This document shows positions 24,985 to 63,341 of a DNA stretch of 64,000 nt, in pieces. Source of the stretch: Candidatus Bipolaricaulota bacterium (lineage in GTDB: Bacteria; Bipolaricaulota; Bipolaricaulia; UBA7950; UBA9294); assembly GCA_030606565.1 (NCBI GenBank), contig JAUWGE010000002.1, forward strand, positions 36,107-100,106, given 5' to 3'. Every line of letters begins with the position of its first letter. Positions within the stretch are counted from its first letter, which is position 1. The notes under the pieces were generated by a model. That model was given only the letters and a program-made list of their open reading frames with translations. It did not search any database and was not told where the DNA came from. The translations under genes were made by a program, and so were the position numbers.

Positions 24985-25069
24985 GGAGGGGTGGGTGAGC
25001 GGTCTAAGCCGCTAGTTTGGAGAACTGGTGTACCTTCGGGTACCGCGGGTTCGAATCCCGCCCCCTCCG
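24985..25069 (+). tRNA. tRNA-Ser (anticodon GGA)
   Basis: GGAGGGGTGGGTGAGCGGTCTAAGCCGCTAGTTTGGAGAACTGG, then a long variable arm TGTACCTTCGGGTACC, then T-arm GCGGGTTCGAATCCCGC and CCCCTCCG. Class II tRNA. Confidence 0.85.
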
Positions 25070-25073
25070 AAAA

Positions 25074-25345
25074 CGCCTGTGCTAGGTGGGGGGCTAGCGG
25101 TCCCCTCCATCCACAACCCGCTATAGTGGAGCCGAAGGGTTCCCAGAGGGGGAAGGCAGTAGGGTCCGTTCTCGGGCAAGCGGTGTTGAGGGTCGAGCCC
25201 TCTGCGGCGCATGTTTGTGAATCCCGTCAGGCCCGGAAGGGAGCAGCGGTAAGCGAGCCTCTGCGGGTGTTAGAGAATAACTTGGCCTGAGCTGGCTGCC
25301 CGTGAAGCGCCTGGTGTCTTCTCACAACGGGACCACGCACAGGCG
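25074..25345 (+). ncRNA. ffs: signal recognition particle RNA, long (Bacillus-type, Alu domain-containing) form
   Basis: Domain IV motif GTCAGGCCCGGAAGGGAGCAGC at ~25228. The 5' Alu-like region CGCCTGTGCTAGGTGGGGGGCTAGCGGTCCCC resembles B. subtilis scRNA. A terminal helix is formed by 5' CGCCTGTGC (25074) pairing with 3' GCACAGGCG (25337-25345). Confidence 0.8.
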
Positions 25346-54662: not shown

Positions 54663-54805
54663 AAAAAAGCTTCCAAAGAAGCCATCCCGCTGCGAGCCTA
54701 TCTTTCACCTCCATAGAATGCCGTAGGGTCCGTGACCCCATGACCCCAAAGTATGCCCGTCACCTGTTGTAAAATTCAATGGTAGACCCCATACTACGAC
54801 GCGCC

Positions 54806-54922
54806 TTAGAGACCTGGTCTTTGGCTGATTGCTGAGAGCTGCCCGCTGATAGCTTTTTACCGCAGAAGCGCTGAAGTCACAGAGTGAAGTGACATGGTAG
54901 AGGCGCGAATTGCGGTATCCCG
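54806..54922 (+). repeat. intergenic repeat family, copy A (core ~117 bp)
   Basis: TTAGAGACCTGGTCTTTGGCTGATTGCTGAGAGCTGCCCGCTGATAGCTTTTTACCGCAGAAGCGCTGAAGTCACAGAGTG...GGCGCGAATTGCGGTATCCCG aligns with copy B (55950..) and copy C (57069..). Confidence 0.8.
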
Positions 54923-55040
54923 CCCCCCTCTCCCTCTCTCCCCATCGCCCCCTCTCCCTCTCCGCACTCTCCGCCCTCCGCATTCCGAACTCATCCTTCC
55001 CTCTTCCTCTTCTCTTTTCCCCACCGGTCCAGTACAGTAA
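54923..55040 (+). repeat. polypyrimidine (CT-rich) tract following repeat copy A, ending in the shared tail TTTTCCCCACCGGTCCAGTACAGTAA
   Basis: About 100 nt that are almost entirely C/T on the + strand (CCCCCTCTCCCTCTCTCCCC...). A similar tract and tail follow copy C at 57181..57292. Confidence 0.8.
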
Positions 55041-55149
55041 TAGAGGGGTTATCTTTGTGCTGGTGCCAAGCGGTTGTCTATCTCTTGTCTTTGAGTTATC
55101 ATAAAATTGATTGGGCTGATTAGAAGGGCAGGAGGGGAGGGAGTACGCT

Positions 55150-55425
55150 ATGGCGGTGAGTACCAAGATCCCGAATGATCTGGATAAGCAAACCTTTGCC
55201 AAGCGGGCTAAAGCCCTTTACAACCACAGATACCGCAAGAGACTTGAAGCGGCCGAGTGGGGTAAAGTAATTGCCATTGAAGTGGAAAGCGGGGAGGTTT
55301 TCATCGGCCGTACAGCTTTGGAAGCTGGATTAAAGGCTCGAGAGAAATATCCTGATAAGTTCTTCTACTTTATCCGGATCGGATATCCGGCAGTTCACTG
55401 TCTAAAGAGCCCTGGCAAGCCGTGA
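55150..55425 (+). CDS. small partner protein of retropepsin-like protease module (DUF5678-like)
   Basis: 91 aa with a ...GKVIAIEVESGEVFIGRTALEAGLKAREKYPDKFFYFIRIG pattern. The stop overlaps the start of the downstream protease gene. Confidence 0.55.
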   Translation: MAVSTKIPNDLDKQTFAKRAKALYNHRYRKRLEAAEWGKVIAIEVESGEVFIGRTALEAGLKAREKYPDKFFYFIRIGYPAVHCLKSPGKP

Positions 55426-55805
55426 GTTATCTCGGAAAGGTGTTCTTACAAGGGTTCATCAACGATAATCTGGAGCCAATAGTGGAGAACGTTATCTTAG
55501 TCGGTAAGGAAGAGCGGATTTCACTAGAAGCCATTCTGGACACCGGTTTTAATGGGATGTGCTGCTTGCCAAGGAAGTTCCAACCCCTGTGCGAGCTCAA
55601 TGCTCTCGGCATAGAAACTTTCGAGTTAGCCGATGGAACCTTGGTTGAAGAAGAACTATACGTGGGACAAATTCTCGTGGGTGACGTTTGTTATTCCGTT
55701 GAGCTGACCCTGACTGATGCCGATCGAGCCCTGTTAGGTATGCAATTGTTGCTAGATAAAGTTGCTATCTTCGACCTTAAGACGATGCGAATCGAGGTGA
55801 AATAA
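55422..55805 (+). CDS. retropepsin-like (clan AA) aspartic protease
   Basis: 127 aa with the catalytic motif ILDTGFNGMC (D-T-G), which is a retroviral-type aspartyl protease fold signature. Translationally coupled to the upstream small gene. Confidence 0.65.
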   Translation: MSYLGKVFLQGFINDNLEPIVENVILVGKEERISLEAILDTGFNGMCCLPRKFQPLCELNALGIETFELADGTLVEEELYVGQILVGDVCYSVELTLTDADRALLGMQLLLDKVAIFDLKTMRIEVK

Positions 55806-55949
55806 GGAGCGGGTTCAGTTGGAGCCCTGGTATGGTATGCGCACAACCGGTCGCTGTGGCTCGATCTGATCATTCGGTAAACCGCGGGTCTACGCAACGC
55901 TAGTCGAGAATCGATGCACTACTACCTTCCAGCAATCAGTTTGCGCATC

Positions 55950-56080
55950 TTAGAGGCCTGGTCTTTGGTTGGCAACTGGCAGCTGATAGCTTTTTACCGC
56001 AGAGGCCTTGAAGTCACAGAGTGGGGATGACACGTTAAGGGCGCGAATCGCGGTATCCCGAAATCATTTTGTGTCAAGTG
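55950..56080 (+). repeat. intergenic repeat family, copy B
   Basis: TTAGAGGCCTGGTCTTTGGTTGGCAACTGGCAGCTGATAGCTTTTTACCGCAGAGGCCTTGAAGTCACAGAGTGGGGATGACACGTTAAGGGCGCGAATCGCGGTATCCCGAAATCATTTTGTGTCAAGTG. Confidence 0.8.
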
Positions 56081-56148
56081 CCCCCGGGTCCTATGGACAT
56101 CAGACTTCGGACTAAGTAGACTATCAGCTATAGGAAGGGGTGTTTTTA

Positions 56149-56445
56149 ATGGTGCTAACAGTACGGACGCAAGAGCTGCTGGAAAAGGTATTGGCAGTCC
56201 TGCCGACTGCTGAGGATGAGGTTATCACTAAGGGCATCACCAGTAGCGTGGCCGATCGGATTCTGGAGTTGAAGAGATCCGCCCACCGCTTGAAGGAGAC
56301 CTATGGCAACGTTGAGAAGCTGGAGAAACGGATCGAGGAGGAAAGTGTCTCCGCGGACGATCATACACTCTACAATGACCTCCTGGAGTGGCGGGCAACT
56401 CTGGACGAGTTGGATAAACTGTTGCAGATTCTAGAATCCCTCTGA
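56149..56445 (+). CDS. hypothetical small helical protein (first gene of a coupled small-gene string)
   Basis: Start MVLTVRTQELLEKV... with an RBS-like GGAAGGGG upstream. The stop overlaps the next start (TGATG). Confidence 0.45.
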   Translation: MVLTVRTQELLEKVLAVLPTAEDEVITKGITSSVADRILELKRSAHRLKETYGNVEKLEKRIEEESVSADDHTLYNDLLEWRATLDELDKLLQILESL

Positions 56446-56843
56446 TGCCAGTCTCTCCGTCTTGGCACCAGAGGGTTCGAACCAGCCTAGAAGCGTCGGG
56501 TATCTTTGCTGGTGTGAAGATCATAGGAGCTAAGGTGCGCGGGGTCATCAGCAAGGAGCTGTATGTGGACATCTATTATGACCCAACCACCAACAGTTAC
56601 TCCTATGCCTTGATCGATCAAACCCTTCCCTATCCAGGGGACAAGCGAGTCTTTCTTTGGGTGGGATGACTATCCACACAAGAACGTGCGGAAATCAAAC
56701 AGCTCGAAAGCTTCCCGCACCATTTCCAGAAACGAAACAAAGAAGGATGGATCTTTGAGGAGTCTCCGATGCGCGGGAACGTGAAGGGCGAGATGGACTT
56801 GGTAATCAAAATGGTGAAAGAATATCTGAAAACATCAACATGA
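56445..56843 (+). pseudogene. small ORF interrupted by an in-frame TGA at 56667-56669; the frame stays coding-like to 56843
   Basis: Reads MPVSPSWHQRVRTSLEASGIFAGVKIIGAKVRGVISKELYVDIYYDPTTNSYSYALIDQTLPYPGDKRVFLWVG, then TGA, then continues in the same frame as LSTQERAEIKQLESFPHHFQKRNKEGWIFEESPMRGNVKGEMDLVIKMVKEYLKTST. Confidence 0.4.
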
Positions 56844-57022
56844 GAATTGAGCAGTTTGAGGATCTTTTAAGACCCTACGTTGAGGGTTTCAGATTTATGG
56901 AAGATGGTTCAAGTCAAGAAATTGGTTTAAGGATATTGAAATTTGGAGAGCGGCGAGGAGCTGTCCCAAGAAGGCAGCCTTCAGCAATCATGATTCAGCG
57001 GTCAGGAAGTGACAATCAGTGA
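56840..57022 (+). CDS. hypothetical small protein (third coupled ORF)
   Basis: 60 aa, with ATGA start/stop overlap with the preceding reading frame. Weak support. Confidence 0.3.
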   Translation: MRIEQFEDLLRPYVEGFRFMEDGSSQEIGLRILKFGERRGAVPRRQPSAIMIQRSGSDNQ

Positions 57023-57068: not shown

Positions 57069-57171
57069 CTGGCTGAATGCTAATTTACCGGTAGAGGCGC
57101 TGAGGTTGCAGCGAGAGATGACACGTCAAGGGCGCGGATCGCGGTATCCCAAAATCGTTTTGTGTCAAGTG
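57069..57171 (+). repeat. intergenic repeat family, copy C
   Basis: CTGGCTGAATGCTAATTTACCGGTAGAGGCGCTGAGGTTGCAGCGAGAGATGACACGTCAAGGGCGCGGATCGCGGTATCCCAAAATCGTTTTGTGTCAAGTG. Its 3' half is nearly identical to copy B. Confidence 0.8.
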
Positions 57172-57180
57172 TAGGCCTGA

Positions 57181-57292
57181 CCCTCTGCTGCCCCTGCCTC
57201 GACTTGCTTTTCCTTCTCCCCCTCTCCGTGTCGCCCCCTCTCCCTATCTCTCCTTTTCCCCTTCGGCTTTTCCCCACCGATCCGGTATACTA
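57181..57292 (+). repeat. polypyrimidine (CT-rich) tract following repeat copy C, ending in the shared tail TTTTCCCCACCGATCCGGTATACTAA
   Basis: CCCTCTGCTGCCCCTGCCTCGACTTGCTTTTCCTTCTCCCCCTCTCCGTGTCGCCCCCTCTCCCTATCTCTCCTTTTCCCC... It sits directly upstream of the RBS of the 57310 gene. Confidence 0.8.
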
Positions 57293-57309
57293 AGAAAATC
57301 CAACCGGAG

Positions 57310-61272: not shown

Positions 61273-61372
61273 TCAGCTATCAGCAGTCAGCTAAAAGCCA
61301 AACTGCAAAGACCGACAAGCCAACGTATGAAATGTAGGTTGCTTCTTGCCGTAAGCTGAGAGCTGATCACTG
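61270..61372 (+). repeat. degenerate copies of the intergenic repeat family (one inverted, one direct fragment)
   Basis: CAGCTATCAGC...CAAAGACC (61274-61313) is the reverse complement of the GGTCTTTG...GCTGATAGCTG segment of copies A/B. GCTGAGAGCTGATCAC (61355-61370) matches the CTGAGAGCTG segment of copy A. Confidence 0.55.
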
Positions 61373-62149
61373 CTTCACCTTGAAGCTTCGGCGGTGGATC
61401 GATGATGGACCGAGGCGCTTGAGCGCCGCAAGATGAGCAGGCGTCCCGTATCCCTTGTTAGAATCGAGTCCATATCCAGGGTATTGAGCGTTAAGCTTGA
61501 CCATCATCCGGTCACGATAGACCTTGGCGAGGATGGAAGCAGCCGCGATGTGAAGGGAGCGGGAATCCCCTTTGGTGAACGACAGCGCGGGAGGGCGAGA
61601 AATTGAGTGATTGAGAGATTGAGTGATCGGGGGATTGGAAGATTGAGAGATTGAAAGATTGAGTGATTGAGTGATTGAGTGATCGGATGATTGAGAGATT
61701 GGATGGTTGGGAGTTCTAGGTTGTAAATGATTCAATCTCTCACTCGCTAAATCTCTCAATAGTGTGAGCCCGCGGTCGAGCAGGAGGAGGTCGACCGGGT
61801 GTCTCATGGCGCGATAGGCGCGCTGGGCGGCAAGGGTTAGGGCAAGAACGATCCCGACACGATCGATCTCGGACGGTGTAGCGTAGCCGATCCCCCAGTT
61901 AGAGACGGAAGTGATCCGGGGAAAGAGCGCCTCCCGCCTCTTTGAGGAGACCCGCTTGGAATCGTCGATCCCAGCGAGGAAATCAAGAATCGATGTTCCA
62001 CGTCGGGCATGAAGCCCGACGCTACAGGGATTCCTTTCCTCCTCAACGTCGGGCATGAAGCCCGACGCTACAGGAATGTGGACACAGCAGACGACAACCG
62101 GACCGGCAAGGGCCCCACGACCCACCTCATCGAAGCCGGCAATCTCCAT
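61367..62149 (-). CDS. rnhB: ribonuclease HII with internal low-complexity insertions (the ORF is open to 62467)
   Basis: Canonical N-terminus MEIAGFDEVGRGALAGPVVVCCV at 62149, and C-terminal RNase HII region (SKRREALFPRI..., KGDSRSLHIAAASILAKVYRD). An in-frame 8-bp tandem array and an extra insert (VASGFMPDVEEERNPCSVGLHARRG) interrupt the fold. Confidence 0.8.
   Translation of the reverse strand: MEIAGFDEVGRGALAGPVVVCCVHIPVASGFMPDVEEERNPCSVGLHARRGTSILDFLAGIDDSKRVSSKRREALFPRITSVSNWGIGYATPSEIDRVGIVLALTLAAQRAYRAMRHPVDLLLLDRGLTLLRDLASERLNHLQPRTPNHPISQSSDHSITQSLNLSISQSSNPPITQSLNHSISRPPALSFTKGDSRSLHIAAASILAKVYRDRMMVKLNAQYPGYGLDSNKGYGTPAHLAALKRLGPSSIHRRSFKVKQ
61601..61713 (+). repeat. tandem repeat (GATTGAGN)x14 inside the rnhB reading frame
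   Basis: Fourteen consecutive 8-bp units (gattgagt gattgaga gattgagt gatcgggg gattggaa ...). On the minus strand they encode an 8-aa periodic SITQSLNH-like insert. Inverted partial copies (CAATCTCTCACT, AATCTCTCAAT) follow at 61731-61762. Confidence 0.85.
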
Positions 62150-62453
62150 GGTTTTTATTCTTTTCGTTTCACCGCAGAGATCGCGGAGGCCACAGAGGTT
62201 TTTACCTCTATAGGAGTTCTCCGCGTTCTTTGCGTACCTGGGGGGTGTAGTAAATCCCTCTCCGGACACTACACCCCCCGAGACGGTAGAAGCTTTTGAA
62301 AACGGACGTCGGACGTTGGGGACAAGGCCCTCAACGTCGGGCGTAAAGCCCTCAACGTCGGGCACAAGGCCCTCAACTACAGAGGAGCGGATCTGTTCGT
62401 CGAAGGCGTAGAGCTCACGCACGCGTAAAACAGGTGAGGAGGGGTTCTTGCTC

Positions 62454-63341
62454 CTAGTTTTTGCCATGAAGGCTGAAGTAGCCGTTCATCGGCCCAAAGC
62501 GGGGAAGCGGCCACACACGCAGGTACGGCTCGCCGATGAGGTCGTCCTCATCGACAAATCCCCAGAAACGCGAATCCCAGGAGTCCTCCGAGTTATCCCC
62601 GAGGACAAACCACTTACCTTCCGGGACGAGAGTCGGAGTTACCCCGTAGTGCATACGGGGGTCGCTCGAGGTGTAGTGGCGGTCAAAGCGCGGGCCTTTA
62701 AGTTTCTCTTCGTTTAGATAGATGTCCCCGCCCTTGATATATACGGTTTGCCCTCCTACGGCGATCAGCCGCTTTACATACCGTACTTTCTTTTCACGCC
62801 CCAAAATCCCTAAATCGGCAAGCGAATCGATTCCCACTTCTCTTAACCCCAAGTCCAGTTGGCGGCCTTCATACAATGCAAGATAGATGTGCGTTCCCTC
62901 AGGGAGGGAAGCGATAATCTCATCTGCCCCGGCGGCGACCGCTTGCTGGTTTATATAGATGATCCGATCTTTAACATTAAGACCGGCGCGTGCGGCCCGT
63001 GAGCCGTCTTTTACTTCCTTCACCAGAACCGCTTCGGTGTGCCAAAAGACAACGATGTCCCCTGGCTTGGGATCGCGGAAATAGTAGGAGATCTTATCGA
63101 CAAAGAAACTGTCGGCCACAAGTACACTACGGTCGCCATTGATCGTTGGGTACATCGAATCAGTGGGTACGTGCATGCGCACGGTGACAAAGCTGATCAC
63201 AAGAAAAGCAAGGACACCCGCGACAACAAGGACCTCAACCCACTCCAGGATCTCGCTTGATACTCGCCCGGGGTTATAGCCGAAACGGCGAACCAGGCGC
63301 AGGATGAACGCTTGCTTCTTCTCCTTCTTTTTTCTTTTCAT
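62454..63341 (-). CDS. lepB: signal peptidase I
   Basis: 295 aa with TM anchor, catalytic Ser box PTDSMYPTI, and GDNSEDSWDSRFWGFV (box E). Confidence 0.85.
   Translation of the reverse strand: MKRKKKEKKQAFILRLVRRFGYNPGRVSSEILEWVEVLVVAGVLAFLVISFVTVRMHVPTDSMYPTINGDRSVLVADSFFVDKISYYFRDPKPGDIVVFWHTEAVLVKEVKDGSRAARAGLNVKDRIIYINQQAVAAGADEIIASLPEGTHIYLALYEGRQLDLGLREVGIDSLADLGILGREKKVRYVKRLIAVGGQTVYIKGGDIYLNEEKLKGPRFDRHYTSSDPRMHYGVTPTLVPEGKWFVLGDNSEDSWDSRFWGFVDEDDLIGEPYLRVWPLPRFGPMNGYFSLHGKN

Follow-up and report, generated by a model that had tools for sequence, protein, structure and literature searches.

Free-standing prokaryotic retropepsins such as those of COG5550 have been on record since the 2000s and may be related to the ancestral enzymes behind the retroviral and pepsin-type proteases. 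Little is known of the function of the prokaryotic single-domain clan AA peptidases (pSNCAPs), according to the paper that describes them (PMC2642776). Members of the COG5550/TIGR03698 family (“clan_AA_DTGF,” also the AF_0612 family) are about 120 residues long, consist of one retropepsin lobe with a D-T-G-F motif, lack a signal peptide or membrane anchor, and occur in bacteria and archaea. Here, we analyze a gene pair whose second member encodes a protein that resembles this family in all of these respects. The pair lies in a 64,000-nucleotide stretch of a Candidatus Bipolaricaulota genome (assembly GCA_030606565.1, contig JAUWGE010000002.1, positions 36,107 to 100,106 of the forward strand), which we call “the window” and number from its first letter. 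Relatives of the window protease are labeled “predicted aspartyl protease” by the Joint Genome Institute (JGI). The protease itself falls outside the curated TIGR03698 family, the description of which mentions no partner.

We establish that the window protease and the small protein encoded directly upstream of it (its “partner”) form a two-gene module that is conserved, autonomous, and horizontally scattered in its distribution. No catalytically intact retropepsin is retained in the absence of its partner, and partners that have lost the retropepsin are frequent. As to function, we tentatively regard the pair as a self-contained toxin-antitoxin-like module in which the partner would restrain a harmful protease, a reading that we consider quite possible and weigh below against its competitors.

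The two open reading frames (ORFs) reported by the first-pass annotation of this DNA are present exactly as it described them. On the plus strand, the partner gene (55150–55425) encodes 91 amino acids (aa) from an ATG start, and the protease gene (55422–55805) encodes 127 aa, with the motif ILDTGFNGMC at residues 38–47 when numbered from the GTG at 55422. One detail needs correcting, in that the reported ATGA overlap in fact reads GTGA: the 4 nt shared by the two ORFs include a GTG, not an ATG, as the start of the second. Nearly all protease homologues are 121–122 aa long and begin with MFLQG. Because these starts align with a second in-frame GTG at 55440, the true start may be located there, 14 nt past the partner stop, yielding a protein of 121 aa; coupled translation is compatible with either start. 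A purine-rich Shine-Dalgarno-like run, AGGAGGGGAGGGAG, can be read from the sequence at 55130–55143 (plus strand), 6 nt before the partner ATG. A sigma-70-like promoter match, TTGTCT-17-TATCAT, lies at 55074–55102 (plus strand), 48 nt upstream of the same ATG; the consensus scan that found it returned six sites in the region against 1.9 expected, which makes it weak evidence for a promoter. The promoter-like region and both genes together form a conserved cassette unit of 801 bp (55013–55813, plus strand), the edges of which are sharply defined by blastn homology. With 45 close homologues of the protease, more than 500 of the partner, and a conserved gene order, the pair does not represent chance ORFs.

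For the protease, the best match in the model libraries was to TIGR03698 (E = 3.6e-7, 30.4 bits, below the cut-off of 57.35). Of the two Pfam models proposed in the first-pass annotation as a check, PF13975 matched below its threshold (E = 0.06, 14.4 bits, cut-off 28.2) and PF13650 gave no match in the Pfam search. No curated cut-off is therefore reached by any of these models; all library matches are sub-threshold and all belong to clan AA. A profile built from 16 protease sequences reached the retropepsin domains of Ddi1 and ASPRV1 in the PDB (E about 0.02), and an AlphaFold2 (AF2) model computed from the family alignment is almost entirely beta (predicted local distance difference test, pLDDT, 88; predicted template modeling score, pTM, 0.77). 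Comparing this model with the PDB by Foldseek placed Rickettsia APRc first (5c9f, E = 1.2e-4, template modeling score, TM, 0.61), and the other top matches were mostly proteases of human immunodeficiency virus 1 (HIV-1), human T-lymphotropic virus (HTLV), and foamy virus (E = 1e-4 to 1e-3, TM 0.5–0.6). The top list also holds fungal pepsins (Candida Sap3, a two-lobe clan AA enzyme), RloA, and the DUF785 protein Lpg0085; its DUF785-family entry 2pma is presumably a member of the RimB family.

The catalytic triplet D40-T41-G42 is encoded at 55539–55547 and the second clan AA signature, the hydrophobic-hydrophobic-Gly motif L104-L105-G106, at 55731–55739, both on the plus strand and both located by homologue alignment; the latter aligns with LIGLD of Ddi1. 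All three catalytic-motif residues and G106 are invariant across the 16 close homologues. Among proteases retrieved through their partners, D, T, and G106 are likewise invariant and the G of the triplet is at least 90% conserved, one archaeal member reading DTC; the circularity of motif-based retrieval is therefore removed. Both sequence signatures of clan AA are thus present, and the predicted model has the single-lobe beta-barrel. We confidently predict a single-lobe, retropepsin-like clan AA fold for the 127-aa protein, in agreement with its first identification. The protein is strongly acidic (isoelectric point, pI, 4.3, family median 4.5; charge −11.5), lacks both a signal peptide and any membrane segment, and is presumably soluble, cytoplasmic, and homodimeric.

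The 91-aa partner is indeed a small protein of the “DUF-like” kind that had been supposed: it has no match in Pfam, NCBIfam, PHROGs, or PADLOC, and its model has no fold relative in the PDB. Its homologue profile finds 517 proteins in a 90%-clustered database, only one of which is annotated by Pfam (P0086, a 181-aa fusion with PF20797); where the source gives names, these are hypothetical proteins. The wider family amounts to 2,708 clusters at 50% identity (E ≤ 1e-3), 634 of them with E ≤ 1e-10, and a sample of 46 more distant members gave no match to a Pfam or NCBIfam model. The sole Pfam signal for the family is to DUF5678 (PF18929), itself functionally uncharacterized, in 4 of 34 relatives and with a best E of 0.0052. 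We rejected this assignment, as the signal is weak and inconsistent, the window partner has no match to it, and the distant members have none (0/46).

The AF2 model of the partner (pLDDT 82) begins with a long helix and continues in the order helix-strand-strand-helix-strand, followed by a conserved tail; secondary structure ends after residue 76, and confidence drops after about residue 81. Conservation across the whole family is highest in R-V-G-[YH]-x-A-x-[YH], a segment that runs from the last strand into this tail. It reads RIGYPAVH in the window subfamily, and the window tail motif G-Y-P-A-V-H-C-L is encoded at 55381–55404 (plus strand). Across the 46 distant members, G78 is invariant and R76 at least 90% conserved. 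The window partner is basic (pI 9.8, charge +7.7); the family is not consistently so (median pI 7.2). Some homologues (P0171, P0207, and P0220) string together two or three full partner domains, every one of them with a separate tail.

That such pairs recur, as the first-pass annotation maintained, is borne out by co-occurrence across genomes. When one genome for each GTDB species was scanned with the protease motif [AT][IV]LDTGFNG, 52 loci were obtained, distributed over Chloroflexota/Dehalococcoidia, Bipolaricaulota, Planctomycetota, Acidobacteriota, KSB1, Nitrospirota, Nitrospinota, Poribacteria, Latescibacterota, Armatimonadota, Cyanobacteria, Pseudomonadota, Methylomirabilota, Rubrobacteraceae, and one archaeon. 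These loci were searched locally with a hidden Markov model (HMM) of the partner. In 48, the match was on the protease strand and directly upstream, and two further loci hold a divergent small ORF with partner motifs and a 4-nt overlap with the protease; the last two, one at a contig edge and one a 17-residue remnant, were set aside. The partner is therefore found upstream of the protease in 50/50 testable loci, which represent about 15 phyla. Look-ups of seven distant partners agreed: six, including those of Acetothermia, Poribacteria, and a Methanosarcinales archaeon, have a protease of 122–130 aa either overlapping the partner gene or 2–10 nt downstream of it, and the seventh is an orphan partner. 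The pairing of protease with partner is essentially obligate. Most of the protein homologues are labeled Chloroflexi, and the closest labeled record of the island in which the window pair lies is a Candidatus Bipolaricaulota metagenome-assembled genome (MAG; locus L018).

Copy number varies as well. One Dehalococcoidia chromosome carries two full partner-protease pairs in tandem (L035, 2717–4065), two loci (L019 and L029) come from a single MAG, and two others (L117 and L144) have two partner genes in a row.

The reverse search, seeded with the partner only, gave 80 metagenome loci, 74 of which had enough sequence to judge. An intact protease follows immediately downstream in 52 of the 74 (in one case in the order partner-partner-protease), and in 22 an intact partner stands beside a protease that is damaged or missing. 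The damage takes the form of internal deletions that fuse N- and C-terminal remnants (L093/94, L113/115, L117, L135, L139, L153), nonsense or frameshift mutations (L116, L132, L125, L137, L141), or truncation (L149); in other loci the protease is wholly absent (L095, L104, L123, L108, L118, L110, L130, L152). A graded series can be followed upstream of an oligopeptide permease gene, from an intact protease through a 43-aa and a 24-aa remnant to nothing. When partners are clustered at 90% identity, 13/41 clusters include a decayed or absent protease. Set against 0/50 proteases without a partner, the asymmetry is significant whether loci or clusters are counted (Fisher p = 4e-6 and 9e-6, respectively), and the same pattern is seen beyond the scan in L029, L050, L070, and the fusion P0051. 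This one-sided decay is new evidence pointing toward a toxin-antitoxin or defence role.

The genes around the pair differ from genome to genome. The 125 ORFs nearest to it in 45 loci match 117 different Pfam families, none recurring more than twice; there is therefore no conserved third component, and the module is autonomous. Its neighbors elsewhere include HicAB, PIN/Phd, HEPN, CopG, DUF2442, and IS110 with integrases, and in many genomes it is chromosomal, among housekeeping genes. On two contigs unrelated to each other, an orphan partner (L070, 1483–4288) and a full pair (L072, 2001–4133) both lie beside molybdenum hydroxylase/CO-dehydrogenase-type genes with Fer2_2, FAD_binding_5, and MoCoBD domains, which may be a coincidence or a preferred insertion site. 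We rejected a phage or plasmid origin, as the partner profile has no match in IMG/VR, the protease none in PLSDB by tblastn, and neither protein any in PHROGs. Similarly, membership of a known anti-phage defence system was rejected: in PADLOC-DB v2, the partner has no match and the protease only a marginal one (PDLC01052, “peptidase,” E = 0.0036).

We favor the toxin-antitoxin-like reading because of the retropepsin fold with its conserved motifs, the obligate pairing, the asymmetric decay, the autonomy of the module, and its position, in the window and its sister contigs, in a strain-variable island of toxin-antitoxin cassettes. In mechanistic terms, the downstream gene would yield a soluble, cytoplasmic, acidic retropepsin-type protease, presumably a homodimer, which if free would harm the cell by cleaving cellular proteins. 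The small protein translated together with it from the upstream gene would be its dedicated neutralizer, binding the protease so that the conserved, unstructured C-terminal tail (R-V-G-Y-P-A-V-H...) might occupy or block the substrate cleft. In this scheme, we infer that the protease is toxic, that the two proteins bind physically, that the tail has this role, and that stress, phage, or some other trigger may be involved. We count in its favor the antitoxin-first gene order, the 4-nt overlap, and the complementary charges of partner and protease (+7.7 versus −11.5). The same applies to the finding that conservation of the partner is highest in a tail left unstructured in the monomer model, and to the HicAB, PIN/Phd, HEPN, CopG, and DUF2442 genes beside the pair elsewhere. 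More speculatively, the family at large could be a widespread toxin-antitoxin or abortive-infection class, in which a cytoplasmic retropepsin toxin is held inactive by the pseudo-substrate tail of a partner with a new fold; we offer this as a conceivable extension, with some reserve. If true, this would be the first toxin-antitoxin family with a protease toxin, and a role would be found for the functionally orphan relatives of retroviral proteases in prokaryotes.

Several points weigh against the toxin-antitoxin-like reading. The partner has no recognizable DNA-binding fold of the ribbon-helix-helix (RHH), helix-turn-helix (HTH), AbrB, or Phd types, and there is no palindromic operator upstream of the pair; for both reasons, classical type II autoregulation is unsupported. 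The pair thus has the adjacent, co-directional small genes of a type II system, organized as an autonomous bicistronic unit, and lacks a recognizable DNA-binding antitoxin. To our knowledge, an aspartic protease is not the toxin of any established toxin-antitoxin family, and literature searches on retropepsins or aspartic proteases with toxin-antitoxin systems found no such toxin. For every member of the family, harm to the cell and contact between the two proteins are inferred. The Tyr-Pro of the tail is confined to the close subfamily, other members having H-R, S-P, or Y-K in its place. A few of the single-base frameshift and nonsense cases may be assembly errors, which the deletions and absences cannot be. 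The asymmetry would also be expected if the partner were independently useful and the protease a dispensable accessory. Finally, the lack of plasmid or viral copies is unusual for addiction modules, though the collections searched under-sample these phyla.

The main rival turns the relationship around and makes the partner an effector that the protease processes, for example by clipping its tail, and thereby activates, releases, or turns over. The tail of the window partner, GY-PAVH, resembles retroviral Tyr-Pro cleavage sites such as the matrix/capsid (MA/CA) site of HIV. The multidomain partner chains, in which a tail follows every domain, would then be mini-polyproteins, and a partner that survives without the protease, when the protease never occurs without it, behaves as if independently functional. 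However, the position after G-[YH] is taken by P, R, or K, which leaves no fixed cleavage motif, and the partner, matching no fold or family, suggests no candidate activity. In addition, if function depended on processing, loss of the protease should bring loss of its substrate, yet intact orphans are common, even where the protease gene is gone altogether. A protease-substrate pair thus explains the same asymmetry and fits the island context, the multi-copy patchy distribution, and the intact orphans less well; we consider it a serious alternative, if an unlikely one.

Less probable again is a non-selfish arrangement, in which an ordinary regulatory or quality-control protease works with a dedicated adaptor or chaperone, much like RimB in RimABK. 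The characterized bacterial retropepsins RimB, RloA-C, and APRc do have physiological roles, and the pair sits among chromosomal housekeeping genes in many genomes. A housekeeping function accords poorly with the lack of any conserved neighbor or pathway, with the patchy occurrence across distant phyla and archaea, and with the several copies or tandem duplicates in some genomes (L035; L019 and L029). Nor does it account for the frequent pseudogenization or for a window pair placed inside a strain-variable toxin-antitoxin island.

The roles might also be reversed, with the basic partner as the toxin and the protease as an enzymatic antitoxin that destroys it, by a logic like that of type VII systems. 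Toxin-first operons exist (higBA and hicAB), and the window partner is very basic, with a long N-terminal helix that could bind nucleic acid. We think this very improbable: intact partners persist after protease loss in 22/74 loci, which should be lethal were the partner the toxin, and basicity is not a consistent property of the family. Some probability must also be reserved for mechanisms outside those considered here.

The island itself deserves closer description. In the window, the pair lies between a gene for a 694-aa FIMAH-domain protein and a PKD-domain gene, and the wider neighbors are ordinary chromosomal genes (UvrA, SLH, RNase HII, signal peptidase). Sister contigs from several JGI metagenomes and a Candidatus Bipolaricaulota MAG share the two boundary genes and hold more cassettes between them, namely HTH/DUF4160, the pair, RelB/YafQ, a TumE-like pair, PDDEXK_3, and DUF4258. 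The 801-bp unit is 96.9–97.0% identical in six sister metagenome contigs and one MAG by blastn, and its flanks differ. Homology between the window and its sisters is limited to two sharp blocks, 55013–55813 and 56091–56925, at about 97% identity.

The second block (56091–56925, plus strand; 97.6% identical in the sister contigs) is a further cassette, with a 101-aa gene (56140–56445) and a TumE-like gene (56445–56842), both on the plus strand, the latter interrupted by an in-frame TGA at 56667–56669. The TumE-like gene has an FPHH motif, matches PF20126 when read through the TGA (E = 0.0095), and is a short fragment in the sister contigs; the cassette seems to be a further case of a toxin that has decayed while the gene upstream of it stayed intact. 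Its homologue in contig L001, identified by blastn, consists of genes of 91 and 36 aa.

Three repeats are associated with these cassettes, all on the plus strand and located by repeat search: R1 upstream of the pair (54800–54925, also supported by alignment and pattern search, and followed by a CT-rich tract at 54926–55012), R2 downstream of it (55944–56085, replaced by the RelB/YafQ cassette in sister contigs), and R3, a partial third copy that ends the second cassette (57080–57175, also supported by alignment). A 20-nt core occurs three times in the window against 0.03 expected; some 120 nt align between 54800–54925 and 55944–56060, and 57080–57175 aligns more weakly. The first-pass annotation spoke of a repeat-flanked cassette. 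Direct repeats do bracket the pair, and to that extent the description stands; they are not part of the conserved 801-bp unit, and the sequences at its flanks differ between strains. An origin as an integron gene cassette, with the repeats as attC sites and the pair as promoterless cargo of an integron integrase, could draw on the common orientation of these ~120-nt repeats, their bracketing of two successive cassettes about 1.1 kb apart, and the strain-dependent cassette content, but we rejected it as barely credible, given that neither strand of the repeats folds better than shuffled sequence (z −1.8 to +0.6), so that they lack attC-like hairpin stability, that the flanks differ in sister contigs, that no integrase is found within about 8 kb (genes from 48.9 to 63.3 kb were scanned, the rest of the window not protein by protein), and that each cassette has its own promoter-like site and the island spacers are short repeats of heptamer type. 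In our reading, R1–R3 are spacers prone to recombination within a hypervariable island, and neither attC sites nor the ends of mobile elements. A structured-RNA reading of the repeats was also rejected, as Rfam at gathering thresholds gave four tRNAs and the signal recognition particle (SRP) RNA in the window and nothing at the repeats. One of these tRNAs lies directly upstream of the large-type bacterial SRP RNA (RF01854, 161 bits) at 24985–25342, an arrangement that probably suits a lineage of Chloroflexota, Bipolaricaulota, or Firmicutes-like type.

Some smaller sequence elements can be noted. A 55–64-nt element, GATGACACGT.AAGGGCGCG.ATCGCGGTATCCC.AAATC.TTTTGTGTCAAGTG, occurs at 56026–56080 and 57117–57171 of the window, in L001 (1472–1540), and in L018 (472–540). 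It is 86–98% conserved between strains, even without the rest of the repeat, and combines an outer TGACAC/GTGTCA inverted repeat with an inner CGCG..CGCG palindrome; it has no Rfam match and an unexceptional folding energy. The intercassette spacers of L001 (1240–1460, 2090–2254, 3385–3541, 5115–5190, and 7186–7340) are composed of heptamer-like units in degenerate form (GCTGA.., CAGC...), together with larger direct repeats (62–109 nt). R1 holds the same GCTGATTGCTGAGAGCTG...GCTGATAGCT pattern, and cassette shuffling may act on such heptamer-type spacers. At 54926–55040 and 57212–57293 of the window, and twice in L001, a CT-rich tract leads into CTTTTCCCCACCG.TCC.GTA.A.TAA; located upstream of both the pair and the PKD-domain gene, it could be a duplicated promoter region or a shared regulatory element. 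Repeats are also present in the RNase HII ORF (61367–62467, minus strand), which stays open through insertions at 61597–61713, 61997–62077, and 62313–62386. They include an 8-nt tandem array of 12.5 copies, three units (24 nt) of which encode an ITQSLNHS-like peptide repeat, and hairpin-type repeats (TCAACGTCGGGCATGAAGCCCGACG...). Pfam RNase_HII is matched in three separate stretches, and the insertions appear to be in-frame repeat expansions within a housekeeping gene.

It remains to place the pair among described systems. The first-pass annotation called such modules functionally uncharacterized, and the searchable literature bears this out: we found no functional study of the pair and no paper or curated model describing the partner family. 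The accompanying remark that toxin-antitoxin or defence roles had been suggested for such pairs found no confirmation in our literature searches. Tying a large retropepsin subfamily to a specific, uncatalogued partner turns a “hypothetical protease” into a testable hypothesis, and we recommend that the partner family be given a curated family model. If the favored reading were confirmed, toxin-antitoxin and defence biology would gain a new enzymatic toxin class, and a retropepsin would have a natural protein inhibitor or, alternatively, a defined substrate.

Among characterized bacterial retropepsins, APRc, RimB, and RloA-C share the fold of the window protease at only 16–20% sequence identity, and no member of the partner family precedes any of their genes. 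APRc is embedded in the membrane, RloA is periplasmic according to its PDB title (9g58), and the Rlo enzymes are described as secreted, whereas the window protease is predicted to be cytoplasmic. RimB of Pseudomonas is described as acting with RimA and RimK on ribosomal protein S6, and RloA-C as taking part in the osmotic stress tolerance of P. aeruginosa.

Type II modules such as RelBE, Phd-Doc, and VapBC resemble the pair in their overlapping, co-directional small genes with the protective gene first, in their autonomy and patchy distribution, in clustering with other toxin-antitoxin genes, and in leaving orphan “antitoxins” beside decayed “toxins.” They differ in that the putative toxin of the window pair is an aspartic protease, its partner has no RHH, HTH, AbrB, or Phd fold, and the operator palindrome is missing. 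A mechanistic analogy is offered by ImmA/IrrE-type pairs and by staphostatin-staphopain, in which a protease stands beside a small substrate or cytoplasmic inhibitor. These use metallo or cysteine catalysis, other folds, and other gene orders, and have no sequence or structural relation to the pair. What was already known, then, is the protease superfamily, functionally orphan in prokaryotes; what is new is the partner family, the locked pairing of the two genes, and the one-sided loss of the protease.

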